This document shows positions 2,677 to 53,394 of a stretch of 64,000 nucleotides of DNA, in pieces. Both the position numbers and the translations under genes were made by a program. Numbering within the stretch: position 1 is the stretch's first letter; each line of letters opens with the position of its first letter. This stretch comes from Verrucomicrobiota bacterium (GTDB lineage: Bacteria > Verrucomicrobiota > Verrucomicrobiia > Limisphaerales > CANJSG01): assembly GCA_043775315.1 (NCBI GenBank), contig JAYVSO010000125.1:78670-142669 (forward strand), given 5' to 3'. The notes beneath the pieces were generated by a model, which was given only the letters and a program-made list of their open reading frames with translations, had not been told where the DNA came from and did no database searches.

Positions 2677-3561
2677 ATGAAATCCCTGTCCGGACTCCTG
2701 CTGCTGGCGGCAATGGCGGTTCTCGCGACGACCGGTTGCGTGACCAGCGGTTCCACCTCCGCCGCGACAAACACCCGCTACGTGTTCCTCTGCTTCGGGC
2801 AGTCGAACATGGAGGGCTTCCCCGGCATCGCCGAGGAGGACAAGGGTCCGGTGGACGCACGGTTCCAGATGCTGGCCGCCGTGGACTTCCCCAAGCAGGA
2901 CCGCGTGAAGGGCACTTGGTATCCCGCCGTGCCGCCGCTGTCCCGGCCGTCGGCCGGACTCGGGCCCGTCGACTACTTCGGCCGCACGCTGGTCTCGAAT
3001 CTCCCGCCCCACATCCAGGTCGGCGTCGTCAACGTCTCGATCGGCGGCGGCAAGATCGAGCTGTTCGAGAAAGACTCCTTCCAGGGCTACGTCGCGACAG
3101 CGCCGCGTTGGATGACCAACACCATCGCCACCTACAGCGGCAATCCCTACCAGCACCTCGTCGAGATGGCGAAGCTGGCCCAGAAGGACGGCGTCATCAA
3201 AGGCATCCTCCTCCACCAGGGCGAATCGAACACGAACGACAAGGAATGGCCCAACAAGGTCAAGGCCATCTACGCAAACCTCCTCGCCGATCTCGGCCTG
3301 AAGGCGGAGGACGTGCCCCTGATCGCCGGTGAAGTGGTGAACGCCGACCAGAATGGGGTCTGCGCCGGCATGAACAAGATCATCGCCGATCTGCCCAAGA
3401 CCATTCCGACGGCGCACGTCGTTTCCTCCGCCGGATGCCTTGCCCGGCAGGACCGGTTGCACTTCACCGCCGTCGGCTACCGCGAACTCGGTCGGCGCTA
3501 CGCCGAAAAGTGGCTCGCATCCAGCAGGGTGAGGGCGACGGAGATTAAGGCCGTTCCATGA
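2677..3561 (+). CDS. SASA/DUF303-type carbohydrate esterase (sialate O-acetylesterase-like; probable acetyl-xylan esterase)
   Basis: Signal peptide with lipobox-like TTGC. YVFLCFGQSNMEG motif (GQSNM, SGNH-like DUF303) and C-terminal HFTAVGYRELGRRYA. Confidence 0.8.
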   Translation: MKSLSGLLLLAAMAVLATTGCVTSGSTSAATNTRYVFLCFGQSNMEGFPGIAEEDKGPVDARFQMLAAVDFPKQDRVKGTWYPAVPPLSRPSAGLGPVDYFGRTLVSNLPPHIQVGVVNVSIGGGKIELFEKDSFQGYVATAPRWMTNTIATYSGNPYQHLVEMAKLAQKDGVIKGILLHQGESNTNDKEWPNKVKAIYANLLADLGLKAEDVPLIAGEVVNADQNGVCAGMNKIIADLPKTIPTAHVVSSAGCLARQDRLHFTAVGYRELGRRYAEKWLASSRVRATEIKAVP

Positions 3562-8458: not shown

Positions 8459-9313
8459 ATGAAAAACCTCTCTTTGCTGCTGCTCCTTGCAGTGGCCCTC
8501 ACGTTCGGATCGTCCGCGTTCGCCGAGCCAGACCCGAATTTCCACATCTACCTCTGCTTCGGCCAATCGAACATGGAGAGCGGAGGCAAAATGGAGGACA
8601 TGGACCGGACGGTGGACAAGCGCTTCCAGGTCATGGCCGACGCCGACTCCACCAACCGGGGCTGGAAAAAAGGCGCCTGGTATGAAGCCGTCCCGCCGCT
8701 GGCGGCGAAAGGCAACGGCATCTGCATGGTCGACTATTTCGGCAGAACGATGGTCGCCAACCTGCCGGAGAAAATCCGTGTGGGCGTGATCAAGGTGTCC
8801 GTTCCAGGCGCCAAGATCGAGCTGTTCGAAAAGAACACCTACACCAACTATTCTGCCACCGCCGCAGGTTGGATGCAGAACCACATCAAGCGATACGACA
8901 GCAACCCCTACCAGTTTCTCGTCGAGATGGCCCGCGCGGCGCAGAAGAAGGGCGTGATCAAAGGAATCCTCCTGCATCAGGGTGAATCCAACCCGGGCGA
9001 CAAGGAATGGCCCAACAAGGTGAAGGGCATCTACGACAACCTGATTAAGGACTTGAACCTTAGGTCCGGGGAAGTGCCGCTGCTGGCAGGCGAGACCGTG
9101 AACGCGGATCAGGGCGGAAAAAGCGCCGGATTCAACACGATCATGGCCGAACTGCCGAAGACGTTGCCGAATTCCCATGTCGTCTCATCGGCCGGTTGCT
9201 CCTGCCACCCGGACAAGCTGCATTTCAATGCGGCGGGTTCGAGGGAGTTCGGCAAGCGCTACAGCGAGAGGATGCTTTCCGTGCTGGGCTACAAGGTCAC
9301 CGACCCCAAATGA
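8459..9313 (+). CDS. SASA/DUF303-type carbohydrate esterase, paralog of 2677..3561
   Basis: MKNLSLLLLLAVALTFGSSAFA signal peptide, HIYLCFGQSNMESG and GILLHQGESN. Collinear and ~50% identical to the esterase at 2677..3561. Confidence 0.8.
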   Translation: MKNLSLLLLLAVALTFGSSAFAEPDPNFHIYLCFGQSNMESGGKMEDMDRTVDKRFQVMADADSTNRGWKKGAWYEAVPPLAAKGNGICMVDYFGRTMVANLPEKIRVGVIKVSVPGAKIELFEKNTYTNYSATAAGWMQNHIKRYDSNPYQFLVEMARAAQKKGVIKGILLHQGESNPGDKEWPNKVKGIYDNLIKDLNLRSGEVPLLAGETVNADQGGKSAGFNTIMAELPKTLPNSHVVSSAGCSCHPDKLHFNAAGSREFGKRYSERMLSVLGYKVTDPK

Positions 9314-32156: not shown

Positions 32157-32240
32157 TGGTGCGGACGAGAGGACTTGAACCTCCACTCCTTACGGAACCA
32201 GATCCTAAGTCTGGCGCGTCTGCCATTTCGCCACGTCCGC
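32157..32240 (-). tRNA. tRNA-Leu (anticodon UAG), CCA encoded
   Basis: Reverse complement gives GCGGACGTGGCGAAATGGCAGACGCGCCAGACTTAGGATCTGGTTCCGTAAGGAGTGGAGGTTCAAGTCCTCTCGTCCGCACCA. It has a 7-bp acceptor stem, anticodon loop CTTAGGA, a long variable arm (class II) and T-loop GGTTCAAGTCC. Confidence 0.8.
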
Positions 32241-32523: not shown

Positions 32524-34332
32524 CTATTCCAGCGCGATCTGACCTCGCGTGACGCGGGCGTAGTAGCCGTCGCGTTGGCTGAGTTCGTCGTGGTTGCCGC
32601 ATTCGGCGAGACGTCCGTCGTTCAGGACAAGGATCTTGTCGACCCGACGGATGGTGCTGAGGCGATGGGCCACCATGAGCACGGTCCTACCTTTCATGAG
32701 TTCGTGGAAGCTGCGCACCACCAGTTCCTCGCTCTCGGCGTCTAGGGCGCTGGTGGGTTCGTCGAGAAGAAGGATCGGGGCGTCCTTGAGGAAGGCACGC
32801 GCAAGGTTGAGCCGCTGGCGTTCTCCGACGGAGAGACGGGCGGCTCCATCGCCGACCTGGGTGTCGTAGCCCTGCGGCAGGCGGCGGATGAAGACGTCGG
32901 CATTGGCGGATCGTGCGGCGCTTTCAATCTCCTCGCGCGACGCCTTGGGCCGGCCATAGGCGATGTTCTCCGCGATGGTCGTCGGGAGTAGGATCGGTTC
33001 CTGCAGGACGACGGCGATCTGCGAACGGAGATCCCGCAGCTTCAATTGACGAAGATCCGCGCCATCCAGCCGCACTGTGCCTGATACCGGATCGTAGAAG
33101 CGCGGCAGCAGGTTCATCAGCGTGGTCTTGCCGACGCCGCTGGGGCCGATGACGGCGGCGGATTCACCGGCTTTCAGCTCGAAGGTCAACCCCTTCAGAA
33201 TCTCGCGTTCGGGCGTGTATCCGAAATGGACGTCATTGAACTCAATCGCACCCGAGACGGACAGTGCCGTTCCGGTAGCGGAGGCCGGCGCCGCTGAAGT
33301 TGCACGCACGACGGCGCGCGCGTCCGGCGCGTCCTTCACATCTTCCGGGGCATCGAGAAGCTCAAGCACACGCCCGGCTGCAGCCGAGGCGCTGGATACG
33401 GTCGCACCCACATGCGAGAGTTGATTGAGCGGATCGTAGAGCTGGCCGAGGTAGCTCAGGAAGATGAAGAGGTCGCCCTTGGTCAGCTTGCCGGCCAGCA
33501 CCTCGAGGCCACCGACCCAGATGATGAGCGCCGCGCCCAGGCCGAAGATGCCGCCGATCACCAGCCAGTAGATCAACTCCCACGCGTGCTGTTTGAGACG
33601 CTTTTGCTGGGCGTCTTCCGTCTGTGCGGAAAACTGGCCCACCTCGTAGTCTTCCCGGGTGTAGCTCTGGATCAGCGGCAAGGCCGTGACCGTCTGCTGG
33701 ACATGCGTCGTCACCGCGCTGTCGGCCTGCTGCGCCGCCAGGCCGCGCTCGGTCATCTTGCGGCCGAAGAAGCGGATGGCCACAACCAGCAAAGGCACAA
33801 TGGCAAGGGCCACGAGGGTCAGCCGCCAGTTCAAGGCGAGCATGAAGGCGGTCATGCCCACCAGCGTCAGCCCGGCCTTGAGCATCGTGAGCGCGCCCTG
33901 CTGGAAGAGCGTCTGCACCGAATAGGTGTCCCACGAGGCGCGGTAGATCAGGTCGCCGGACTTTGTTCCGTGATGGAACTTCATCGAGAGCCGCTGGAGG
34001 CAGGCGAAGACGGCGTTGCGCGCGCGCATGAGCCCGCGCAGGCCGATGCCTATGGCGGCGTAGTTCTGGGCCGCGTCGATGGACCCGTGCAGCACATAGA
34101 GGCAGAAGGCCGCGACCGCCAGCGCGAAGACCGACGCATCGGGCGTCCACCCCGACGCGGCGTCCAGCCAGGCCGGGAGCGGCTTGGAATCGAGGACGGA
34201 ATCGATCAGCAGCGCGACAGGCCAGGGCTTGAGGAGGTTCGCGCCGATGCCGGCGAGGAGCAGCAGGAATACGCCCGCCAGACGCGGGCTTTCCGGTTTG
34301 TAGAACTGTGAGATCCGACGCCAAAGCGACAT
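32524..34332 (-). CDS. ABC transporter, fused permease/ATP-binding protein (MsbA-like exporter)
   Basis: Six N-terminal TM helices. Walker A GPSGVGKTT, signature LSVGERQRLNLARA and Walker B LLLDEPTSALD. Start set to ATG 34330-34332 (MSLWRRISQFY). Confidence 0.85.
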   Translation of the reverse strand: MSLWRRISQFYKPESPRLAGVFLLLLAGIGANLLKPWPVALLIDSVLDSKPLPAWLDAASGWTPDASVFALAVAAFCLYVLHGSIDAAQNYAAIGIGLRGLMRARNAVFACLQRLSMKFHHGTKSGDLIYRASWDTYSVQTLFQQGALTMLKAGLTLVGMTAFMLALNWRLTLVALAIVPLLVVAIRFFGRKMTERGLAAQQADSAVTTHVQQTVTALPLIQSYTREDYEVGQFSAQTEDAQQKRLKQHAWELIYWLVIGGIFGLGAALIIWVGGLEVLAGKLTKGDLFIFLSYLGQLYDPLNQLSHVGATVSSASAAAGRVLELLDAPEDVKDAPDARAVVRATSAAPASATGTALSVSGAIEFNDVHFGYTPEREILKGLTFELKAGESAAVIGPSGVGKTTLMNLLPRFYDPVSGTVRLDGADLRQLKLRDLRSQIAVVLQEPILLPTTIAENIAYGRPKASREEIESAARSANADVFIRRLPQGYDTQVGDGAARLSVGERQRLNLARAFLKDAPILLLDEPTSALDAESEELVVRSFHELMKGRTVLMVAHRLSTIRRVDKILVLNDGRLAECGNHDELSQRDGYYARVTRGQIALE

Positions 34333-34385
34333 CTCACCGAGACTAGGGAACGAAGCGGGCGAGGGGAACTGGGAATCTGGTGGGT

Positions 34386-34434
34386 CCAGCCGCGCTGCGG
34401 CTGGACGCCGAGTCGCAGCGCGACTCGGCCCACC
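34386..34434. repeat. Compound palindromic element (two adjacent hairpins) - intergenic copy
   Basis: CAGCCGC-GCT-GCGGCTG followed by GAGTCGC-AGC-GCGACTC. ~42 nt nearly identical to 51102..51150 inside the giant ORF. Confidence 0.6.
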
Positions 34435-34456
34435 TTTGCTGGGGGCGCTGCTTCGC

Positions 34457-35545
34457 CTATTTGGCCGGCCAAGCGCCATCCACCATTGGAACTGTCACGA
34501 CCTTTGCCGGATCAACCACCGCATTTTTCACGCGCTGGCGTTTCCATGTGTATGTGATCTGGACGAGTCCGTCGGCCGATTGGATGACGGCGGGGTAGCT
34601 GAACTCCATGTTCGGCTCGTTCTCCAGGACCAGCGCCGCATCCCAAGTTTTGCCGTCGCGACTCACGGCGACATTGAGCGGCGACCGTTTTCCACCCCAT
34701 TGCCCCGGCAGGCCCGGGACGTGGTTGTAGACAATCAGGTGGCGTCCATCCTTGAGCGTGAGCGCGTCGGTGCCGGAATTAGGATTCGGCAACATTCCGA
34801 GCGTCATCGCTCCCCAGGTCTTGCCGCCGTCGGTGGAACTGATGTCGAAGATGCGGTTCTGCCGGGAACGGCCGATGGCCTGAAGGCGCCCATCCGGGTG
34901 AAACAAAATGCTCGGCTGGATCGCGCCGATGGTCCGGCCGTCGTTGACGAATGGCGTCGCCATCCAGGTCTTTCCATTGTCGGAGCTGCGCTCGAAGTAG
35001 ACGCGCCAGGTGTCGGTCTTCGGATCCTCGTTGCTCGTGGGCGAGAGGATCGTGCCGTCGGCGAGCTGGACGGGCTTGTTCTTGATCGGCCCAAGGATTC
35101 CATCGGGCAGACGGCGGCGATTCCTCCAAGAGACACCGCTGTCGTCGGACTCGATGACTTCGCCCCACCACGTCTGCGGACTCAGCCCCACCTTGAAGAA
35201 CAAGAGCAGCGGTCCCTGCTTCGGCTGGAAGAGGACGGGGTTCCACGTCGGAACGCGTTTGGTCGGCGACTGCACACCGTTGGCCACCTCGATTGGCGAC
35301 GTCCATTTGCCGCCGACATTCCGCGAGACCCAGATTCCGACATCGGGATTCTTCTCCCGCGTTCCGCCAAACCACGCCGAGACCAGGCCGGCTTTCGTTT
35401 CCACAATCGTCGACGCATGGCACTCCGGAAACGGCGCGGTCTCGTAGATGAACCCGGATTTCACGAAGCCCGGTTGGGACGCCAGGTCGGCGGCCATCAA
35501 TGAAATCGAGCTCAATGCCAGCAGAGAGATGACGTGAAGTTTCAT
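34457..35545 (-). CDS. BNR/Asp-box repeat glycoside hydrolase (sialidase-like)
   Basis: Signal peptide. Four Asp-box motifs (SDDSGVSW, SSDNGKTW, STDGGKTW, SRDGKTW). Confidence 0.65.
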   Translation of the reverse strand: MKLHVISLLALSSISLMAADLASQPGFVKSGFIYETAPFPECHASTIVETKAGLVSAWFGGTREKNPDVGIWVSRNVGGKWTSPIEVANGVQSPTKRVPTWNPVLFQPKQGPLLLFFKVGLSPQTWWGEVIESDDSGVSWRNRRRLPDGILGPIKNKPVQLADGTILSPTSNEDPKTDTWRVYFERSSDNGKTWMATPFVNDGRTIGAIQPSILFHPDGRLQAIGRSRQNRIFDISSTDGGKTWGAMTLGMLPNPNSGTDALTLKDGRHLIVYNHVPGLPGQWGGKRSPLNVAVSRDGKTWDAALVLENEPNMEFSYPAVIQSADGLVQITYTWKRQRVKNAVVDPAKVVTVPMVDGAWPAK

Positions 35546-36857: not shown

Positions 36858-37037
36858 AAGCTGCGGAGCAGCGAAAGAAAGTAGCCCACGGCGTGAGCTG
36901 TGGGTTTGGCGTCCGAAGAGAATCAAGCCCTGGAAGGGCGACAGAAGCGCGTCTGCCGCTCCTCCGGAGCTCCTGCGTTCGGCGCGGCGAACCCCGGGCT
37001 CACGCCCGGGGCTGCTGTCTTCCGCTGCTCCGCAGCT
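36858..37037. mobile_element. REPIN-like element copy 1 (inverted REP doublet)
   Basis: Terminal inverted repeats GCTGCGGAGCAGCGAAAGAAAGTAGCCCACGGCGTGAGCTGTGGGT ... GGGCTGCTGTCTTCCGCTGCTCCGCAGC, plus an internal CGGAGGAGCGG / CCGCTCCTCCG hairpin. Confidence 0.7.
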
Positions 37038-39402: not shown

Positions 39403-39650
39403 CGAAATTGGAGCGACAGGCCGCGAGTCCACGAGCAATTCAATGTCGCGAAGCGACCCAGGAAAGCAGCCAGCCACGAAGTGGCTGGAAGGGCGTTCCA
39501 AGTGAGCGCCAAGTCCTGAAGGGACGATGGAACCGCATGCGCCAGCAAGAGGCTCCGACGTCTCTCCGGGACTTGCGCCTCTGGGTGGCGGGTGGTCCAG
39601 CCACTCTGTGGCTGGCTAATATCCGAAGGCCCTTCGGGCCAAACTCCCAG

Positions 39651-39827
39651 CACCGGAGGTGCGACAGACAGTAGCCCACAGCGTAAGCTGTGGGTCTGGT
39701 ATCCAGGAGGGATCAAGCTCCGGAGGAGCGGTAGAAAGTCTTCTGCCGCTCCTCCGGAGCTGACTTCCACCGATCGGTTAACCCCGGGCTCACGCCCAGG
39801 GCTACTGTCTTCCGCTGCTCCGCAGCT
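39651..39827. mobile_element. REPIN-like element copy 2
   Basis: GACAGACAGTAGCCCACAGCGTAAGCTGTGGGT ... GGGCTACTGTCTTCCGCTGCTCCGCAGC. Perfect internal hairpin CCGGAGGAGCGGTAGAA/TTCTGCCGCTCCTCCGG. Confidence 0.7.
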
Positions 39828-43050: not shown

Positions 43051-45174
43051 ATGCAATACCTCATCTACGCCGCCATCGCGTTTGTCGTCCTGATCCCCAT
43101 CGCGATCACGATCGTGCTCTGCATCCGCAAGATCCACCCCGGCAAGGCCGGCATCAGCGTCGGCCTCGGAGGGCTGCGCGTGGCCTTCGACTACATGATC
43201 CGCCTGCCGCTGGTGCAGAACTTCGAGGAGATGGACATCTCCGTGAAGAAGCTGGAGATCCACCGCAAGGGCAAGGACGGCCTCGTCTGCAAGGACAACA
43301 TCCGCGCCGACATCTCCGTGGCCTTCTACATCCGCGTCGAGGCCACCGTGGACAGCGTGAAGAAGGTTTCCCAGATGCTCGGCGTCGAACGCGTGTCCGA
43401 CATGGCCCAGCTCCGCGAGCTGTTCGAGGCCAAGTTCTCCGAGGCGCTCAAGACCGCCGGCAAACAGATGGAGTTCCACGAGCTCTTCACCGAGCGCATC
43501 AAGTTCCGCGAACAGATCCAGGCCACCATCGGCAAGGATCTCGACGGCTTCTTCCTCCAGGACGTGGCGATCGACTACCTGGAGCAGACGCCGCTCGACC
43601 AGCACGACCCCAGCAACGTGCTCGACTCCGAGGGCATCCGGAAGATCACCGAGATCACCCAGCGCGAACGCGTCAGCGCCAACGAATTTTCCCAGCGCGC
43701 GCAGGTCCAGATCGAGAAGGAGAACGCCGACGCCGACATCGCCAAACGCGAACAGCGCCGCCGCAACGAGGAGGACACCGCCAAGCAGACCCGCGCCATC
43801 AACGAGGTGAAGGCCAACGAGGAGGCCGAGGCCCGCAAGGTCATCGAAGGTCGCCGCCAGGAAGTCGAAGGCAAGCGCCTGGAAGCCGACGAATCCATCC
43901 AGTTGCGCACCCAGGACATGAACCGCGCGGTGCAGGAACGGGAGTTCACCGTGAAGAAGGAACGGCAGCGCCTCGAACAGGAGGCTGTGCAGGAAGGCGA
44001 GGAGGCCCGCGTCCGCCGCGAACGCACGGTGTCGCTCGCCGAGATGGACAAGGAAGTGAAGGTCAACGAGGCCGCCGTCGAAGTGGAACGCAAGCGCGCC
44101 ACCGTCGTCTCCGAACAGAAGGCCGTCACCCAGCAGGAGGAGGAGAAGCGCAATATCGAGGCCCGCATGACCGCCGAACGCGTCCGCGAGGTCACGCTCA
44201 TCGAAGCCGAGATGAACGCCAAGAAGGACCAGACCGAGAAGGTCGTCGCCTCCGAGGCCCAGAAGGAAGTCGCGCGTAACGTCGCCGAAGCCGACAAGAT
44301 CCGGACCATCACCGCCGCCGAAGCGGGCCGCGAAGCCGCCTTGCGCGATGCCGAACGCATCCAGACCACCGCAGACGCCGAAGCCAAGGTCGCCGACAAA
44401 CGCCGCCACGCCGCCGAGCAGGAAGCCGAAGGCACCGCCGCCCGCGAAGCCGCCAAAGGCCTCGCCGAAGCCAAGGTCACCATCGCCAAGGCCGGGGCCA
44501 TGAAGATTGAGGCCGCCGCCATCAAGGAGGTTGGTCTCGCCGAAGCCGAGGTCATCAAGGCCAAGGGCATGGTCCAGTCCGAGAACACCCAGACCTTGGC
44601 AGAAGCCGACGCCACCGGCATCGAGGCCCGAGGCACGGCCGAGGCCAAGTCGATCCATCTGAAAGCCGACGCCATGAAGCTGCTCCACGCCGCCGGCCAG
44701 CAGCACGAGGAGTTCAAGCTCCGCCTCGCCAAGGACCGCGACGTCGAACTCGCCGGCATCCACGTCCAGCGCGACGTGGCCCAGGCCAACGCCCAGGTCG
44801 TCTCCGAGGCGCTCAAGACCGCCAAGATCGACATCGTCGGCGGCGAGAACGACTTCTTCGAGAAGATCGTCCGCAGCATCGGCACCGGGAAATCCGTGGA
44901 CCGCATGGTGCAGAACAGCGCCACGCTCACCGACATCAAGGAGACCTTCTTCAACGGCGACCCCGAGCACTTCAAGACCCAGCTCCGCCAGTGGGTCGCC
45001 GACTTCGGGATCAAGACCGAGGATCTGAAGAACCTCACGCTGTCCGCCCTGCTCGCCAAACTCGTCGCCTCCACCGACGACGCGGGAGTGAAGGCCACCA
45101 TCAAGTCCGCCCTCGCGCTGGTGAAGGAGAAGGGAATGGGAGAGGTGAAGGCGGAGACAGTGGTGAAGGCATGA
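43051..45174 (+). CDS. Flotillin family (SPFH/band-7) membrane protein with extended E/A/K-rich coiled-coil
   Basis: N-terminal TM helix, SPFH domain (ISVGLGGLRVAFDYMIRLPLVQN...DNIRADISVAFYIRV), then ~400 aa of EA-repeat coiled coil. Confidence 0.8.
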   Translation: MQYLIYAAIAFVVLIPIAITIVLCIRKIHPGKAGISVGLGGLRVAFDYMIRLPLVQNFEEMDISVKKLEIHRKGKDGLVCKDNIRADISVAFYIRVEATVDSVKKVSQMLGVERVSDMAQLRELFEAKFSEALKTAGKQMEFHELFTERIKFREQIQATIGKDLDGFFLQDVAIDYLEQTPLDQHDPSNVLDSEGIRKITEITQRERVSANEFSQRAQVQIEKENADADIAKREQRRRNEEDTAKQTRAINEVKANEEAEARKVIEGRRQEVEGKRLEADESIQLRTQDMNRAVQEREFTVKKERQRLEQEAVQEGEEARVRRERTVSLAEMDKEVKVNEAAVEVERKRATVVSEQKAVTQQEEEKRNIEARMTAERVREVTLIEAEMNAKKDQTEKVVASEAQKEVARNVAEADKIRTITAAEAGREAALRDAERIQTTADAEAKVADKRRHAAEQEAEGTAAREAAKGLAEAKVTIAKAGAMKIEAAAIKEVGLAEAEVIKAKGMVQSENTQTLAEADATGIEARGTAEAKSIHLKADAMKLLHAAGQQHEEFKLRLAKDRDVELAGIHVQRDVAQANAQVVSEALKTAKIDIVGGENDFFEKIVRSIGTGKSVDRMVQNSATLTDIKETFFNGDPEHFKTQLRQWVADFGIKTEDLKNLTLSALLAKLVASTDDAGVKATIKSALALVKEKGMGEVKAETVVKA

Positions 45175-45844: not shown

Positions 45845-45965
45845 AGTCCTGTTCGCCAGACTCGCCGACGATGCCGACGTGAAATACGCGATCAAGTCCG
45901 CCCTCACGTTGGTGAAGGAGAAGGGAATGGGGGAGGTGGGGGCGAAAAAGGCGTTGGAGAGCTGA
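45845..45965 (+). pseudogene. Duplicated remnant of the flotillin 3' end
   Basis: Encodes LFARLADDADVKYAIKSALTLVKEKGMGEVGAKKALES*, against the flotillin C-terminus LLAKLVASTDDAGVKATIKSALALVKEKGMGEVKAETVVKA*. ~120 bp direct repeat flanking the vapBC cassette. Confidence 0.6.
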
Positions 45966-46663: not shown

Positions 46664-46867
46664 TCAGGCGCGGAGCGCCGAAAGAAAGTAGCCCACAGCG
46701 TGAGCTGTGGGTCCTCGTCCCCATTGATTCCCCAGCCCCGGAGGGGCGACAGAATCCTTCGCGCCAATCCCGCGCTCCGCATTCTTTCGCCCCTCCTGGG
46801 CTCGTCCGATTTCCCATCGCAACCCACGGCTCACGCCGTGGGCTACTTTCTGCCGGTGCTCCGCACC
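46664..46867. mobile_element. REPIN-like element copy 3 (5' flank of RAYT)
   Basis: GGAGCGCCGAAAGAAAGTAGCCCACAGCGTGAGCTGTGGGT ... ACCCACGGCTCACGCCGTGGGCTACTTTCTGCCGGTGCTCCGC. Confidence 0.75.
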
Positions 46868-46937
46868 TATGCACTGAGCCTCTGCCGGAATCACACCGCT
46901 CGACCTAAGATTCACTAGAAATCCGACCTGACCCACC

Positions 46938-47390
46938 ATGCCCCGCACTTACACCCAGCTTCTGAACCACATCGTGTTCAGCACGAAGGAGCGCCGGCCC
47001 ACGCTGACGCCGGAGCTGCGGGCGCGGCTGTTTCCCTACATGGGCGGGATCATCCGGCAGCTCGATGGAGCGGCCTTGCTGATCAACGGGGTCGCGGATC
47101 ACGTCCACATCCTCGCGTCGCTGCCCGCTACGGCGGCGTCTTCGGAGTTTGTCGGCAAGCTGAAGGCGAATTCCTCGAAATGGGTGCATGAGAACTTCCA
47201 GGAACATCGCGCCTTTGCATGGCAGCTCGGATACTCCGCCTTCAGCGTAAGCGTTTCGCAGAAGCAGGGAGTTTTGGACTACATCGCCGGACAGGAAGAA
47301 CACCACCGGAAGGTGTCTTTTCAGGAGGAGCTGATCTCGTTCCTGAAGAAGCACGAGGTCGAATATGACGAACGCTACGTGTTTGAATGA
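46938..47390 (+). CDS. REP-associated tyrosine transposase (RAYT; IS200/IS605 TnpA-like HUH Y1 transposase)
   Basis: 150 aa. HUH motif HVHILASLP, catalytic Tyr region LGYSAFSVS, and N-terminal YTQLLNHIVFSTKERRP typical of TnpA_REP. Flanked on both sides by REPINs. Confidence 0.8.
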   Translation: MPRTYTQLLNHIVFSTKERRPTLTPELRARLFPYMGGIIRQLDGAALLINGVADHVHILASLPATAASSEFVGKLKANSSKWVHENFQEHRAFAWQLGYSAFSVSVSQKQGVLDYIAGQEEHHRKVSFQEELISFLKKHEVEYDERYVFE

Positions 47391-47440
47391 AGATGGACGC
47401 CACCAACGCCATAAGCTCTGAAGCGAACCCATCTAGCCAC

Positions 47441-47634
47441 GGAGCGGCGGCAGACAGTAGCCCACAGCGTGAGCTGTGGGTTCTGATCACCCTGAATCTT
47501 AAGCCCCGGAAGGGCGGCAGAATTGTTCGCACCAATCGAGCTCCGACAGCTCTATCGCCCCTCCGGGGCTCATTCACTTTTGGCAGCCAACCCACAGCTC
47601 GCGCTGTGGGCTACTTTCTTTCGGTGCTCCGCAC
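47441..47634. mobile_element. REPIN-like element copy 4 (3' flank of RAYT, 5' of giant ORF)
   Basis: GGAGCGGCGGCAGACAGTAGCCCACAGCGTGAGCTGTGGGT ... ACCCACAGCTCGCGCTGTGGGCTACTTTCTTTCGGTGCTCCGC. Confidence 0.75.
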
Positions 47635-47690
47635 CTTGGGCCGGCTGCCGACGGTTCGGTCTTTTGACCACCATTTTGCCTCTTTGACCC

Positions 47691-50600
47691 ATGGCTGACC
47701 CCACTCCTCCAGCCCAGCCTTCCGCCACCGCCCCGTCCGCCCTCGTGGGCGCGACCTACGAGATCATCCGGCAACGGCTGGCGACGAACTCGTCCACGTT
47801 GCGCGAGCGCATGGGCAAGCTCGACGCACGGCGGCAGGAGGTCTTCGGGCGGATCGAGTCCAAGCTCCTCCAGGCCGACCGTGTCACCACCGCGCACAAC
47901 TGCATGCCGCGCGACATGGTCCCGCTCGGCCACGGCCGGTTCCTCTTCGCCTTCAACGTCCGGTTCGGCCTCAAGAAGGAGATGGATCTGGCGGATGTCT
48001 TCGCCATCTACCGGCGCGACGAGGCCACGGGCGGGTTCAAGGAGGAGTCGCTGGAGCCGCTCCAGGACAAGCAGTTCGTCACCGACTTCAAGCGCCTCTA
48101 CAACGTCTATGAGAAGACCGCGTTCAGGAAGTTCGCCGTCATCGGCGGGAACCTCTACGCCAAGTTCGGCACCGGCGCGTCGCTCAACGACTACGCCGTC
48201 TTCAAGTGGGCCTTCAACGACGGCAACCTCCGCTACCTCGACGGCCGCTCCGAGGCCGAATACCGCCGCGTCGGCTATCCGCCCACGCACGATTTCCGCT
48301 GGCAAACGCCCGACCGCGAGTCCTACCGCTACGGCGACCATCCGCACGTCTCCATCGCGGAGCGCGTCTTCGTCGAGTGCGTCGGCGGCGACCTCACCAT
48401 CAAGGTCGAGGACAACACCGCCACCGGCGAGGGCATCTATTCGGAGTCCGTGGACGACCGGCACCAGAAGGTGGACGACGCCGAAATCGCCTTCGCGGAG
48501 CTGGACCATCTGATCCTGCTCAAGGTCCGGCCCTACAAGGAAACCGCCGCCCGCTTCTTCATCTTCAACGAGAAGCTCCGCTCCGTCGTGCGCGTGGACT
48601 CCATCGGCGACGCCTGCGTGCGGTTGCCGGAGGAACACGGCCTGATCTTCCCCGACGGCTACTACCTCGGCACCGGCGAGCTGAAGCGTTTCGACGCGAA
48701 GGAAACCGGGCTGATCCTGGAGCGCGTGGTCCATTCGCCCAACGGCGAGGATTCGCTCTACGTCTTCCACGGCCGCGCTTCCGGCGAACACGTCCTGCTG
48801 CCCTACCGGTTGATCGAGCAGAAGGTGGAGGAACGCATCGCCTGCCACGGCTTCGCGCTGTTCCCCAACGGCCAGCTCATCCTCTTCCGCGCGGACGACG
48901 TGCCGCAGAAGCACCACCAGATCCAGCTTCGGCAGACGCCCTTCTACCAACTCGGCTTCGAACCTTCCGGCCAGAAGGACGCCTTCCTCTACCAGGTCGG
49001 CAACAAGGACGTGGTCCGCTGCCTAGCCGAGTGCAACGAGGTGCTGACGCTCGCCGGCAAGGACACGCCCTACGCCGAGCTGTATTCCGACCTCGTGCGC
49101 CGCTGCACCGCGATGCTTGATGCGTATCCGTGGCTCACGAGCCCGGATGGCTTCCAGATCAACGACGCGCTCCAGCAGCTCCGCGAGATCGCGGACAAGG
49201 CGGTGGATGAATTCGCCAAGGTCCGCCGGCTCCAGCACGAGGCCGTGCTGCGCATTGCCGACGTGAAGAAGCGTTGCGAGGAACGGTTCCAGGCCGCGCG
49301 CCGGGCCGCGTTCTCCAAGCTGGAGGACTTCGTCCACAACCTCGCCGCGCTCCGCCATCTCCGCGGCGAACTGATCATCACGCGCGAAGTCCGCTACATC
49401 GATCTCGCCGCTCTCGATACGCTGGAGAAGGCCGTCATCGCACAACTCGCCGAGCTTTCCGCCTTGTGCGTGAAATTTCTGCTGAAGCCCGAGGCGCTCG
49501 AGCCCTACCGCAAGCAGGCCGCCGAACACCTCGCCGCCGTGGACAAGGTCGCGAAGGTCGCCGACGGCCGGAAGTTGGAGAAGGCCGTGGCCGACGCGGG
49601 CGGCGAGCTGGAGATGCTCATCGAGATCGTCAACAGCCTGAAGATCGACGACGCCACCGAGACGACGCGCATCATCGACAGCGTCACGGCCGTCTATTCG
49701 ACGCTCAACCAGGTGAAGGCGGCGCTGAAGAAGCACCTCCAGGCGCTGGTCGCAACAGAAGGCGCGGCCCAGTTCAACGCCCAGCTCAAGCTCCTCGGCC
49801 AGTCCGCCTCCAGCTACCTCGACCTCTGCGACACGCCGGAGAAGTGCGACGAGTATCTCAACCGCCTCACCGTCCAGCTTGAGGAGATGGAGGGCGCGTT
49901 CGCCGGGTTCGACGAATACACCGTCCAGCTTTCCGACCGCCGCACCGAGTTCTACGAAGCCTTCGAGCAGCGGAAGATCGCGCTCGTCGAGCAGCGCAAC
50001 AAACGCGCCGGCGCGCTCCTGACCGCCGCCGAACGCATCCTCAAGGTCATCCAGAACCGCCTCGCCGGGTTCAAGGCGCTGGAGGAGATCCACACCTACA
50101 TGGCGTCGGACCTGATGACGGCGAAGGTCCGCGAAACGATCGAGCAGTTGCTGGAGTTGGGCGATTCGGTGAAGGCCGACGACCTGCAGGGCCGGCTCAA
50201 GACCGTGCAGCAGGACGCGGTGCGGCAGCTCAAGGACAGGCAGGACCTGTTCGTCGATGGCACGTCCGTCATCCAGCTCGGCAAACACAAGTTCAACGTC
50301 AACACCCAGCCGCTGGACCTGACCATCGTCCAACGCGAAGGCCAGCCGCACTTCCACCTGACGAGCACGAAGTATTTCGACCCGATCACCGACACGGACT
50401 ACCTCGCCACGCGGCAGGTCTGGGATCAGGAAGTGATCTCGGAGAACGCCGACGTTTACCGCGCCGAGTATCTCGCGTGGCAGATGATGAACGCTTCCAA
50501 GCTCGAAGACTTCCTCGCCCGCCCCGAGGACCAGCGCCTTGCCGCCGTGCAGGCGTTCATGGCCGCGCGTTACCAGGACGGCTACACCAAGGGCCTCCAC

Positions 50601-53114
50601 GACCTCGACGGCTCGCGCATTTTCTCCGTGCTGGCCGAGACGCATCTCGCCCTGCAACGCGCGCGATTCCGCCCCGAAGCGCGGGCTTGCGCGGTGGTTT
50701 ACTGGAGCCGCTTCTGCCCCGCTGAAACCCGCACGCTCTGGACTGCCAAGCTTGCGGCTTTCGGCGAACGCAACCGGCTCTTCCCCGGCGATCCGGTGCA
50801 GCAGGACTACGTCGCCGCGCTCCAGAAACTCATCGGCGAGTTCCTGAAAACCCAGCCGCTCTATCCCGAGACGCTGTCCGCCGAAGCCGGCGAATACCTG
50901 TTCCACGAGCTGAGCGACGGCGAGACCTTCACCGTCACCCGCGAAGCCGACCACTTTGCCACGGCGTTCCAGCAACACCTCGTCGCCAAGGGCCGCGACG
51001 ACACCTTCGCCGCCGCCCGCGCCGCCTTGAACAGGCATCCTTCCAGCGAGCTGGAACTCGTGCGCGACTGGGTGAAGGGATTCCTGCTTTCGCAGGTGGG
51101 TGCGGCTGCGCTGCGGCCGAACGCCGAGTCGCAGCGCGACTCGGCCCACCACACGTCGCATCTCGAAGAAACCACCGCCATCCTCTTCTGCGGCGACGCC
51201 CTGCCGCGCGCGGCCGTCCATGCCGAATCCCGCCGCGTGCTCGAAGCCATGCGCGGCGCGCATCCGCGCATCGAGGTCAGCCGCTACACCTTCGACTACC
51301 TCGACTTTACCGCGCGCCTGCGCCGTTTCGAGACCGAGGCCGCACCGCGCTTCGAGGCGTATCACCGGATCAAGGGGCAGTTGCTCGACCGCGAACGCAA
51401 GCGGCTCCGGCTCGACGAATTCAAGCCGCGCGTCCTCTCGTCCTTCGTCCGCAACCAGCTCACCGACCGCGTCTATCTCCCGATGGTCGGCGACAACCTC
51501 GCCAAGCAGATCGGCGCGGCCGGCGCGGCCAAGCGGACGGATCTGATGGGCCTGTTGCTCCTCATTTCGCCGCCCGGCTACGGCAAGACCACGCTGCTGG
51601 AATACGTCGCCAGCCGGCTCGGCATCGTCTTCGTGAAGATCAACGGCCCGGCCATCGGCCACGCCGTCACCTCGCTTGATCCCGAGGAGGCGCCCAACGC
51701 CGCCGCCCGCGAGGAGATCTCCAAGCTGAACCTCGCGCTGGAGATGGGCGACAACGCGTTGATCTGCATCGACGACATCCAGCACTGCAACCCGGAGTTC
51801 CTCCAGAAGTTCATCTCCCTCTGCGACGGCCAGCGGAAGATCGAGGGCGTCTGGCGCAAGCAGTCCCGCACCTATGACCTGCGCGGCCGCAAGGTCGTCG
51901 TGGTCATGGCGGGCAATCCCTACACCGAGAGCGGGCTGAAGTTCAAAATCCCCGACATGCTCGCGAACCGCGCCGACACCTACAACCTGGGCGACATCAT
52001 CGGTGGCAACGCCGAATGGTTCCGCGCCAGTTACCTCGAAAACGCCGTCACCTCCAACGCCACCCTCGCCCCGCTCGCCGTCCGCAGCCAGGGCGACATC
52101 CGCGCCTTCATCCGCATGGCCGAGACGGGCCAGCGCACCGCCGAGGGATTGGAGGGAACCTATTCCGCGCAGGAGCTGGACGAAGTGCTCTCCGTGTTGA
52201 AGAAACTCGTCGCCGTCCGCGACGTCGTCATGCGGGTGAACGAGGAATACATCGCCTCCGCCGGCCAGGCCGACGAGTTCCGGACCGAGCCCGCGTTCAA
52301 GCTCCAAGGCTCCTACCGCAACATGAACCGCCTCGCGGAGAAGGTCGTCGCCATCATGGACGACGACGAAGTCCGCGCGCTCGTCGTCGTCCATTACCGG
52401 GGCGAATCCCAGACGCTGACCACCGGGGCCGAGGCGAACCTGCTCCGCTTCAAGGAACTCATCGGCGAACTCAAACCCGACGAAGCCGCGCGTTGGGCGG
52501 ACATCAAGAAGACCTTCAAACGAAACCAGTTCACCCGGGGCGTGGACCCGGGCGATCCAGTCGGCCGCCTGGTGGCCCAGCTCGCGCAGTTCCAGGCCGG
52601 GCTCGAATCTATCCAGACCACGCTCGCCAGCGCCGCCGCGCGGTCGAAGGAACCCGTCGTGCTCGATGTCAGCTCGCTCGGCCAGAGCCTCGAATCGCTC
52701 CGCACCACGCTCGAAGACCGTCTCACCCGCGTCATCGCGGCGACGACCCCTCCCGCCGCCGCGCCTGCCTCGACCGCCGGCCTGGAGAAGATCGGCGCGC
52801 AGCTTGGGGAGGGGTTGAAAGCCTTGGGTGAAGATCTCCGCCGTAACGCCGGCGTCGTCCACGACGCGGCCATCACGGGCAAGATCGACAGCCTCTCGCA
52901 TGAGCTGGAGATGATCCACAGCACCATGGCGTCGTTGAAGGATCTAGCCACGCAGCAGCGCGACCATCTCCGCACCGCCGAGGAACTCCTCGCCACCCGG
53001 GCCAAGCAGGGCACGGTGGAAGTGGAGCTGACGCAGGAGATGCTCAGCAACGAACGCGTATTCATGGAACGCTTCCAACAGGTGCTCGACGACGCGCAGA
53101 AGCCGAAGACGTGA
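47691..53114 (+). CDS. Giant (1807 aa) uncharacterised protein with MoxR/AAA_5-like ATPase module in C-terminal quarter and multiple coiled-coil segments
   Basis: ATG at 47691 follows the REPIN. Continuous ORF with coding-like composition. Walker A ISPPGYGKTT (nt 51576-51593), Walker B ALICIDDIQH, sensor-like VVVMAGNPY. The N-terminal ~480 aa and the middle region have no recognised motif. Coiled coil at ~490-800 and 1650-1800. Confidence 0.7.
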   Translation: MADPTPPAQPSATAPSALVGATYEIIRQRLATNSSTLRERMGKLDARRQEVFGRIESKLLQADRVTTAHNCMPRDMVPLGHGRFLFAFNVRFGLKKEMDLADVFAIYRRDEATGGFKEESLEPLQDKQFVTDFKRLYNVYEKTAFRKFAVIGGNLYAKFGTGASLNDYAVFKWAFNDGNLRYLDGRSEAEYRRVGYPPTHDFRWQTPDRESYRYGDHPHVSIAERVFVECVGGDLTIKVEDNTATGEGIYSESVDDRHQKVDDAEIAFAELDHLILLKVRPYKETAARFFIFNEKLRSVVRVDSIGDACVRLPEEHGLIFPDGYYLGTGELKRFDAKETGLILERVVHSPNGEDSLYVFHGRASGEHVLLPYRLIEQKVEERIACHGFALFPNGQLILFRADDVPQKHHQIQLRQTPFYQLGFEPSGQKDAFLYQVGNKDVVRCLAECNEVLTLAGKDTPYAELYSDLVRRCTAMLDAYPWLTSPDGFQINDALQQLREIADKAVDEFAKVRRLQHEAVLRIADVKKRCEERFQAARRAAFSKLEDFVHNLAALRHLRGELIITREVRYIDLAALDTLEKAVIAQLAELSALCVKFLLKPEALEPYRKQAAEHLAAVDKVAKVADGRKLEKAVADAGGELEMLIEIVNSLKIDDATETTRIIDSVTAVYSTLNQVKAALKKHLQALVATEGAAQFNAQLKLLGQSASSYLDLCDTPEKCDEYLNRLTVQLEEMEGAFAGFDEYTVQLSDRRTEFYEAFEQRKIALVEQRNKRAGALLTAAERILKVIQNRLAGFKALEEIHTYMASDLMTAKVRETIEQLLELGDSVKADDLQGRLKTVQQDAVRQLKDRQDLFVDGTSVIQLGKHKFNVNTQPLDLTIVQREGQPHFHLTSTKYFDPITDTDYLATRQVWDQEVISENADVYRAEYLAWQMMNASKLEDFLARPEDQRLAAVQAFMAARYQDGYTKGLHDLDGSRIFSVLAETHLALQRARFRPEARACAVVYWSRFCPAETRTLWTAKLAAFGERNRLFPGDPVQQDYVAALQKLIGEFLKTQPLYPETLSAEAGEYLFHELSDGETFTVTREADHFATAFQQHLVAKGRDDTFAAARAALNRHPSSELELVRDWVKGFLLSQVGAAALRPNAESQRDSAHHTSHLEETTAILFCGDALPRAAVHAESRRVLEAMRGAHPRIEVSRYTFDYLDFTARLRRFETEAAPRFEAYHRIKGQLLDRERKRLRLDEFKPRVLSSFVRNQLTDRVYLPMVGDNLAKQIGAAGAAKRTDLMGLLLLISPPGYGKTTLLEYVASRLGIVFVKINGPAIGHAVTSLDPEEAPNAAAREEISKLNLALEMGDNALICIDDIQHCNPEFLQKFISLCDGQRKIEGVWRKQSRTYDLRGRKVVVVMAGNPYTESGLKFKIPDMLANRADTYNLGDIIGGNAEWFRASYLENAVTSNATLAPLAVRSQGDIRAFIRMAETGQRTAEGLEGTYSAQELDEVLSVLKKLVAVRDVVMRVNEEYIASAGQADEFRTEPAFKLQGSYRNMNRLAEKVVAIMDDDEVRALVVVHYRGESQTLTTGAEANLLRFKELIGELKPDEAARWADIKKTFKRNQFTRGVDPGDPVGRLVAQLAQFQAGLESIQTTLASAAARSKEPVVLDVSSLGQSLESLRTTLEDRLTRVIAATTPPAAAPASTAGLEKIGAQLGEGLKALGEDLRRNAGVVHDAAITGKIDSLSHELEMIHSTMASLKDLATQQRDHLRTAEELLATRAKQGTVEVELTQEMLSNERVFMERFQQVLDDAQKPKT
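51102..51150. repeat. Compound palindromic element, in-frame inside the giant ORF
   Basis: GCGGCTGCGCTGCGGCCGAACGCCGAGTCGCAGCGCGACTCGGCCCACC, ~42 nt identical to 34386..34434. Translates as AAALRPNAESQRDSAHH. Confidence 0.6.
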
Positions 53115-53182
53115 ACCACGAATGGACACGAATCCATTCCGGGTAGCCGCCGACGCGAGGAGGTGGAGCGCGTTCTTTCTTC

Positions 53183-53394
53183 AGGCGCGGAGCGCCGACA
53201 GAAAGTAGCCCACAGCGTGAGCCGTGGGTCAGCGATGCCCGAAACTCCCCAGCCCCGGAGGGGCGGCAGAAGGTTTCGCTGGCTCCTGGGTCAGCTCGTT
53301 CTTTCGCCCCTCCGGGGCTCGTCCGGTTTCCCATCGCAACCCACGGCTCACGCTGTGGGCTACTTTCTGCCGCGCCTCCGGCGCTTTAACCCCG
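53183..53394. mobile_element. REPIN-like element copy 5 (3' of giant ORF)
   Basis: CAGGCGCGGAGCGCCGACAGAAAGTAGCCCACAGCGTGAGCCGTGGGT ... ACCCACGGCTCACGCTGTGGGCTACTTTCTGCCGCGCCTCC. ~90% identical to copy 3. Confidence 0.75.

Follow-up and report, generated by a model that had tools for sequence, protein, structure and literature searches.

The locus and its two palindromic copies

The DNA analysed here is a stretch of 64 kb (the window) from contig JAYVSO010000125.1 of a Verrucomicrobiota bacterium (assembly GCA_043775315.1), and its subject is a small compound palindrome, T1, which is found there both between two genes and in frame within the open reading frame (ORF) of a giant ATPase, the host gene. 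The features of the two copies and of the host gene are as follows; REP stands for repetitive extragenic palindromic.

47691 to 53114, plus strand: host gene, giant ATPase of 1807 aa
aa 37-479, 601-683 and 1289-1412 of the host protein: DUF3686 ('ATPase involved in DNA repair'), DUF7902 and the AAA module, respectively
51095 to 51150, plus strand: in-gene T1 copy, 80.1 bits with the covariance model, starting at codon Q1135, base 3, and ending at codon H1154, base 1
51095 to 51099, plus strand: 5′ arm (GGTGG) of the closing stem, paired with CCACC at 51146-51150 and including the left REP unit's GTGG tag
51100 to 51122, plus strand: hairpin 1, conserved top CGCGCTGCG
51123 to 51145, plus strand: hairpin 2, GCCGAGTCGC-AGC-GCGACTCGGC, the same sequence in both copies of the window
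34379 to 34434, plus strand: intergenic T1 copy, both hairpins perfect, 88.2 bits with the covariance model

The 30-mer ACGCCGAGTCGCAGCGCGACTCGGCCCACC has exactly two matches in the window (34405-34434 and 51121-51150), against an expectation of 0 from 100 dinucleotide shuffles, and a repeat finder extends the likeness to 56 nt, 51 of which are identical between the copies. No third copy was found in the window with the family covariance model run without filters (next best hit 17 bits, E 0.1), and Rfam gave no match to T1, either at the gathering threshold over the whole window or at E ≤ 1 on 51040-51210. Both copies are predicted to fold alike, as RNA and as single-stranded DNA, into a 5-bp GGTGG/CCACC stem that encloses two 10-bp hairpins with 3-nt loops. 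The minimum free energies (MFE) are -46.3 kcal/mol (z -6.5) for the intergenic and -38.7 kcal/mol (z -3.6) for the in-gene copy as RNA, and -29.1 and -23.5 kcal/mol, respectively, as DNA. Compared with the intergenic copy, hairpin 1 of the in-gene copy is slightly decayed, with one mismatch and one G-T wobble, and carries one A-T to G-C change that is compensatory.

The intergenic copy lies 22 nt 3′ of the stop codon of a BNR_2 sialidase-like gene (34457-34459) and 46 nt 5′ of the likely start of an ABC exporter gene (34332, MSLWRR), both on the minus strand, and an orthologous copy is present in the metagenome-assembled genome (MAG) JAYUUX01 (L078). A scan of 34200-34600 revealed no terminator or promoter signals around it. 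The in-gene copy is followed by ACACGTCGCATC; neither copy is followed by a U-tract, so that nothing supports T1 as an intrinsic terminator or attenuator, the latter being a role that the initial annotation of this DNA had considered. That annotation described a compound palindrome of about 42 nt in two copies: the two copies and their palindromic nature stand, while the element has proved to be 56-58 nt long and to begin 7 nt further 5′. It correctly placed the first copy between the exporter and sialidase genes and the second within the 1807-aa ORF, into which T1 introduces neither a stop nor a frameshift. The inserted peptide, VGAAALRPNAESQRDSAHH (aa 1136-1154, nt 51096-51152), has 19 residues rather than the 16-17 first proposed, and contains the 17-aa string then given. 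An AlphaFold2 model of aa 1001-1500 gives the insert a low predicted local distance difference test score of 51-71, with the helices on either side exceeding 90, as would suit a surface loop or linker added some 135 aa ahead of the AAA module; this agrees with the loop upstream of the ATPase module that had been predicted.

T1 as a dispersed family

Members of the family were retrieved by searching 185,579 genomes, each representing a species, for the exact 19-mer CGAGTCGCAGCGCGACTCG, shorter than the 30-mer that had been suggested for such a search. At least 81 loci were returned, about half of them chance or coding matches in unrelated phyla; the remainder are full 56-nt elements, all in Verrucomicrobia MAGs, where at least about 35 full copies have unrelated flanks. 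Three of these MAGs had 19-mer matches on at least 16, 9 and 7 separate contigs. The element measures 56-58 nt, and the copies share their ends, GGTGGG...CCCACC, preceded by (C)A and followed by T, within flanks that are otherwise unrelated. No target-site duplication was detected in 26 independent flank pairs, conservation there being limited to C-A at -2/-1 and T at +1. Approximately 17 of about 24 distinct sites are non-genic and about 6-7 intragenic, as judged from frame plots and one Pfam-supported case in an FtsX-type permease. The assignment of a copy to an organism is subject to errors of MAG binning, as illustrated by a genome labelled Bifidobacteriaceae (L009) that carries the verrucomicrobial ATPase.

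When 36 distinct copies were aligned, standard pairs made up 95.9% of cells, compared with 31-41% when the partners are slid. Changes on both sides of a pair occur in 7 of the 10 pairs of hairpin 1 and in both free pairs of hairpin 2, and the covariation score of the stems was reached by none of 500 shuffles. In each half of T1, GGTGGG precedes the hairpin on the strand of that half; the tag reads GTGG in 29 of 36 plus-strand ends and 31 of 36 minus-strand ends, and GTAG in 5 of 36. Each of the two units spans about 27 nt, with 10 bp of stem and 3 nt of loop, and falls within the definition of a REP unit as a GC-rich, imperfectly palindromic stem-loop of 20-40 nt. Since the hairpin tops CGCGCTGCG and CGCAGCGCG are reverse complements of each other, and since the one-strand model also scores on the opposite strand (76.6 vs 88.2 bits), T1 is an inverted doublet of related stem-loops. 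It is a head-head REP heterodimer with a spacer of 0-1 nt and GT(G/A)G tags at its outer ends, which pair with each other to close the structure. The stem-loop unit, the GTAG or degenerate GTRG tag, the dispersed and mostly extragenic copies and the inverted pairing are all those of REP dimers, and with copies both in non-coding DNA and in other genes the initial description of T1 as a REP-like small repeat is borne out.

Variant members also occur. Single-hairpin versions are found at L029 5345-5381 and L050 7111-7154, and at L002 7442-7498 and L040 725-781 hairpin 2 and the closing stem are kept next to a different left half; these variants point to modular assembly of the doublet.

The T1 consensus is free of stops in all six frames, and the in-gene members of the family use three reading frames and both orientations. 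One lies in LpxB, read from the opposite strand as RWAESRCDSAGSRSAAAATN, where about 22 aa have no counterpart in E. coli LpxB (5W8S). Another is in a class-III aminotransferase (QVGPAALRLGAESQRDSAHL), at a region that is variable among solved PDB homologues, so that the indel is less clean than in LpxB. Further in-frame members are present in a class-I/II aminotransferase, for which three MAGs carry orthologous copies, in an HrpA-like helicase and in the FtsX-type permease.

The linker among orthologues of the host gene

A protein search returned 120 full-length orthologues of the host gene, all in Verrucomicrobia-type records, the nearest named relatives being Verrucomicrobiales MAGs. In their alignment the linker was defined as the stretch between VRDWV[KR]GFLL and [HY]L[ED]E. 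A short linker of about 5 aa, typically L[ST][QR]P[EA]xxx[YH]L, is found in 64 of the 120, among them all deep lineages and a marine clade (RNGxNKY). The T1 peptide occupies the linker in 21, a second insert, T2 (GSRRGNEAD...VRLLTSAAT), in another 21, and a third, T3 (NRSAELPLG...AEQELG), in 3, while 11 have other or eroded forms. Judged by this alignment, the T1 insert is an indel relative to most orthologues, which the initial annotation had proposed to examine in this way. At the DNA level T2 is a 77-nt hairpin starting GGTAGCCGCC (DNA MFE -29.7, z -8) and T3 a palindrome, CGGAGCGCCGAGCTCC...GGAGCTCGGCGTTCCG (MFE -27.9).

In a neighbour-joining tree of the orthologues the T1, T2, T3 and empty states are interleaved at the tips of two clades. 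Fitch parsimony on 100 bootstrap trees required 10-12 changes for T1 versus all else and 32-38 for all states, whereas shuffled states required at least 44; these trees are distance-based and contain no recombination model. The empty alleles of different sub-lineages have the same linker, QPEAGRY, and are therefore ancestral rather than products of deletion. Remnants are seen in L082 (a shortened T3) and P0007 (MTSSAT). The linker is a hotspot at which at least three palindromic families alternate among close relatives, and its recurrent occupation may reflect either repeated targeted insertion or old alleles spread by recombination.

The junctions hold further detail. T1 copies of the more distant clade share one 3′ junction, CCCACC-AG-TTC-CGC-TAT, while their 5′ junctions vary (ACG CAG/GTGGAT, CTG CGG/GTAGGT, CTG TTG/GTAGGT and TTG CTG/GTAAGT, the slash marking the boundary). 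The T2 alleles of that clade have the same TTY codon before CGC TAT as the T1 copies, and the empty alleles lack it; this shared codon suggests that one element may have been replaced by another in place. A pre-existing small palindrome at the empty site was considered as the target and rejected, for when 39 empty alleles were folded against sliding windows of their own flanks the mean percentile was 0.51, and only L108 and L112 stood out.

Three side observations concern the same elements. At L072 5163-5226, in a Verrucomicrobiales MAG, hairpin 1 of the in-gene T1 is swapped for a G8...C8 palindrome (GGGGGGGTTCGGCCGGCCGCCCCCCCC) next to an intact hairpin 2, which reflects either a nested change or misassembly. 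A second hotspot corresponds to aa 934-938 of the host protein (50490-50504, NASKL), which is empty in this genome; many orthologues (positions compared in P0004-P0120) carry palindrome-type inserts of 15-70 aa there, identified at the peptide level, including GSRRGNEAD..VRLLTSAATS (T2-like), SAGFSPLQRG...REVKRPEGRAP, GAPASGPA...AGSETGAPSL and SRLQAASEPAKAGT. Finally, one T2 arm (GGTAGCCGCCGACGCGAGGAGGTGGA) lies at 53143-53167, about 30 nt past the stop of the giant ORF and adjoining a downstream pair of Acido-Lenti-1 motifs (described below); it differs at 2 positions from the T2 arm of L083/L090 and is probably a remnant or a single unit.

Age and conservation of the in-gene copy

The in-gene copy is also present in relatives with 88-91% protein identity (P0002, P0003 and P0119; L024, L055 and L089), and a clade only about 69% identical to the query (P0025-33 and others) has T1 at this site too, with frame and orientation unchanged. 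The insertion is thus older than the split from the 88-91%-identical relatives and not recent in this lineage, contrary to the recent activity suggested at first. It had also been proposed that distant orthologues with the same residues and divergent DNA would mark an ancient coding segment; the residues do recur in the distant clade, but the DNA is not divergent.

Conservation was assessed on loci retrieved by protein similarity, a sample unbiased with respect to the element. The in-gene T1 copies of L093, L095 and L137 are identical at 56 of 56 positions within flanks about 81% identical (third codon positions 55-61%). Between the window and L093, T1 is 86% identical and the flanks 65%, and between the window and L087 third-position identity is 15/18 inside T1 and 0.56 outside. 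The peptide changes between clades, A-to-V and A-to-T, correspond to a C-G to T-A pair change in hairpin 2. Elsewhere, the conservation of orthologous T1 copies is only slightly above that of their own flanks. The excess conservation of the in-gene copy fits structural constraint, recent arrival or conversion by other copies. Conservation beyond the flanking codons, together with stem-compensatory changes, argues against an ancient ordinary coding segment, and the maintenance of pairs is unlike what a neutral insert as old as the gene split would show.

A neighbouring Y1 transposase and Acido-Lenti-1

Directly upstream of the host gene is a transposase gene with its own set of hairpin motifs, which recur elsewhere in the window:

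46938 to 47390, plus strand: IS200-like Y1 transposase gene, 150 aa, Pfam Y1_Tnp E-value 2.7e-22
46666 to 46711 (minus), 46823 to 46868 (plus), 47435 to 47480 (minus) and 47591 to 47636 (plus): Acido-Lenti-1 motifs (RF01687) around the Y1 gene
36859 to 37037, 39649 to 39827 and 53183 to 53385: Acido-Lenti-1 pairs without a transposase

The Y1 protein has the HUH motif (HVH) and a YIxxQxxHH motif. It reached 19.7 bits, against a cut-off of 80, with the NCBIfam model for REP-associated tyrosine transposases (RAYT), and only the IS200 model was passed (61 bits, cut-off 55). Synteny of the gene and of the Acido-Lenti-1 motifs around it extends to L055, L067, L085, L087 and L088, which represent both clades, at 66-88% identity; gene and motifs are absent at the orthologous loci of L082-84 and L086. 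In the Acido-Lenti-1 motif a hairpin precedes CTAC, which reads GTAG on the complementary strand. A Y1 gene bracketed by inverted tagged hairpins is the classic RAYT-plus-REP arrangement, and REP-type units are thought to be mobilised as single-stranded DNA hairpins by HUH/Y1 (RAYT-type) transposases. The original description of Acido-Lenti-1 (RF01687) reported only occasional proximity to group II introns; given its tagged hairpin and the inverted pairs around the Y1 gene, it resembles a REP family more than an independent small RNA. The locus is evidence of Y1 enzymes and tagged hairpin repeats at work in these genomes. T1, which never flanks this gene, is inferred to be mobilised as a single-stranded hairpin by a transposase of the Y1 (RAYT) type.

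Origin and maintenance of the insert

It is probable that T1 is a REP-type dispersed repeat that landed in frame in a helix-helix linker of the ATPase, in a protein whose linkers have been refilled repeatedly among its relatives. A copy of T1, moving as a single-stranded DNA hairpin by way of a Y1/HUH enzyme, would have entered the helix-to-helix linker of the giant DUF3686/AAA protein; because the element has no stop in six frames and the net change in length was a multiple of three, the ORF would have stayed intact and gained a loop of 19 residues. T1 may persist in genes by being short and stop-free and by landing in tolerant linkers, and both this linker and the second one near aa 934 would have been filled, swapped and eroded repeatedly in related lineages by at least three palindromic families. 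Several observations weigh against this account. The window contains only 2 copies of T1 in 64 kb, and the Y1 gene close to one of them is flanked on both sides by inverted Acido-Lenti-1 pairs and never by T1. A T1-flanked transposase gene was found neither in the window nor at the T1 loci fetched, the other T1 copies fetched have no Y1 homologue within a distance of 8 kb, and T1 was never seen flanking orthologues of the local Y1 gene among the loci compared. Retrieval by an exact 19-mer, with at least 81 loci listed, underestimates the size and diversity of the family, and the inner 19 nt (the middle of hairpin 2), being fixed by the search pattern, are uninformative on variation. The in-gene copy is, moreover, the sole 19-mer match in L009, L055, L067 and L072, mostly with intact hairpins, so that tolerance of simple junk is an insufficient explanation.

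This last point bears on the proposal, unlikely on balance yet compatible with a mobile origin, that selection maintains the in-gene T1 for the DNA or RNA structure it forms within the ORF, where it could serve as a protein-binding or processing site, as a translational pause at the passage from the helical domain to the AAA module or as a site for the neighbouring Y1 transposase. Its presence as the only match in some genomes, its greater identity than the flanks at the protein-retrieved loci (L093, L095 and L137; the window against L093 and L087) and the compensatory nature of the inter-clade differences in hairpin 2 all speak for such selection. However, in many close relatives T1 is missing, or its place is taken by another palindrome or an eroded remnant (for example P0002 with NAGSLRDS, P0056, P0088, P0097 and the hairpin replacement of L072), from which it follows that T1 is dispensable; the high identity can also be explained by recent repeated insertion, allele transfer or gene conversion, and orthologous copies elsewhere exceed their flanks in conservation just slightly. 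A bolder combination, which is rather doubtful, would make the linker a specific landing pad for GT(A/G)G-tagged hairpins, the in-gene doublet a selected structure, and the REP/RAYT system functionally coupled to the ATPase. Such coupling, if real, would follow from the landing pad taken together with the neighbouring, vertically inherited, RAYT-like Y1 gene flanked by Acido-Lenti-1, and could involve the targeting of, or regulation by, single-stranded DNA hairpins; its alternative is passive tolerance of junk insertions. That T1 could instead be a MITE (a transposable element of the miniature inverted-repeat type), moved by cut-and-paste by a DDE transposase recognising terminal inverted repeats GGTGGG/CCCACC, is improbable, even though the repeats at its ends, its small size, its non-coding nature and its dispersed copies with unrelated flanks are all in keeping with one. 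The 26 independent flanks show no target-site duplication, the supposed terminal repeats coincide exactly with the GT(G/A)G tags that the two inverted hairpins carry, versions with one hairpin (L029 and L050) occur as expected for REPs, an insertion sequence with T1 ends was not seen at any locus, and MITEs are usually far larger than 56 nt. Hardly credible, finally, is the view of the 19 residues as a native coding segment of long standing, to which the intergenic copy is unrelated or secondary. The same peptide in the same position, frame and orientation in the clade of about 69% identity (P0025-33 and others) would agree with it, but a short conserved linker characterises 64 of the 120 orthologues, including all deep and marine lineages, and at least 10 changes between T1 and non-T1 states are needed on each of the 100 bootstrap trees. 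Furthermore, the identical sequence occurs between genes and, in other frames and in the opposite orientation, in other genes, and its substitutions keep base pairs and not amino acids.

Comparison with known systems

The closest precedent for a REP-type repeat in frame comes from Opitutus terrae, another member of the Verrucomicrobia. GTAG-tagged REPs forming head-head and tail-tail dimers were described by Di Nocera, De Gregorio and Rocco (2013, BMC Genomics 14:522; PMC3733652), and in O. terrae the dimers have spacers of 1-2 bp, one family is mostly GTGG-tagged, and most REPs lie downstream of ORFs, between co-directional genes (PMC3733652). About 70 intragenic REPs of this species are in frame and encode 20-30 aa; their host genes include HrpA, both UvrA genes, DnaE2, ligase, a tRNA-ribosyltransferase-isomerase (queA-type) and lipid-A genes, with an excess in replication and repair genes (PMC3733652). 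T1 resembles the O. terrae REPs in being a short, GC-rich, tagged stem-loop with head-to-head units, in its intergenic position between co-directional genes and in its in-frame minority. The two are separate sequence families, and no listed O. terrae REP peptide matches ESQRD, SRCDS or TSAAT. T1 further differs in that at least three families alternate in a single linker among the orthologues, turnover being high, in that the in-gene copy is more conserved than its flanks, and in that no cognate RAYT was found at the loci fetched. As in-frame REP dimers have already been published for O. terrae, T1 is a further case of a known kind of event; new are the T1 family itself, the multi-family hotspot and the excess conservation of the in-gene copy.

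In-frame insertion of a palindrome into unrelated protein-coding genes is also shared with the Rickettsia palindromic elements (RPE), which measure about 100-150 bp and lie in frame in unrelated housekeeping genes, where they are tolerated by the fold (PMC10969869). T1, a REP doublet of 56-58 nt from free-living, high-GC Verrucomicrobia, is set apart from them by size and host, and the Rickettsia families RPE-1 to RPE-10 would be unrelated to it in sequence. In the systems known as REPIN or BIME (bacterial interspersed mosaic element) of Pseudomonas and E. coli, the inverted REP doublet is the unit of dispersal, a RAYT enzyme (TnpA-REP) of the HUH/Y1 type recognises the GTAG-type tag and hairpin, and the RAYT gene is flanked by its own REPs (PMC2817692, PMC8266576, PMC3479197). 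T1 is likewise an inverted, tagged doublet whose stems covary; however, its halves are adjacent without a spacer and fold separately instead of forming one long hairpin, and the sole Y1 gene in view is flanked by Acido-Lenti-1. Acido-Lenti-1 (RF01687) is in turn like T1 a GTAG-type tagged hairpin found in inverted pairs and in multiple copies in the same genome, but it has another sequence and a 46-nt model and flanks the Y1 transposase, and T1 has no match to RF01687.

T1 is a well-documented addition to the few bacterial repeats that write themselves into proteins. The more than 100 orthologues of its host gene provide a natural series of empty, filled, swapped and eroded alleles at one site, which can be used to study how REP-type elements choose and survive in coding targets and how new protein loops enter. 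The preference of intragenic REPs for repair genes is now extended to the DUF3686 'DNA repair ATPase' family. For annotation, ESQRDS, SRCDS and LLTSAAT peptides in Verrucomicrobia proteins should be read as repeat-encoded.

Other features of the window

Rfam RF00005 identifies a tRNA gene at 32160-32240 on the minus strand (59 bits), just 3′ of the ABC exporter gene. Coding-looking DNA also holds two pairs of direct repeats that have diverged. In one (45074-45168 and 45865-45959; 95 nt, 78% identity) the first repeat is near the 3′ end of the ORF 43051-45174 and the second about 790 nt downstream; the other (2968-3267 and 8729-9028; 300 nt, 72% identity) has its repeats 5.8 kb apart. Both pairs probably represent paralogous parts of genes and have no relation to the palindromic families.

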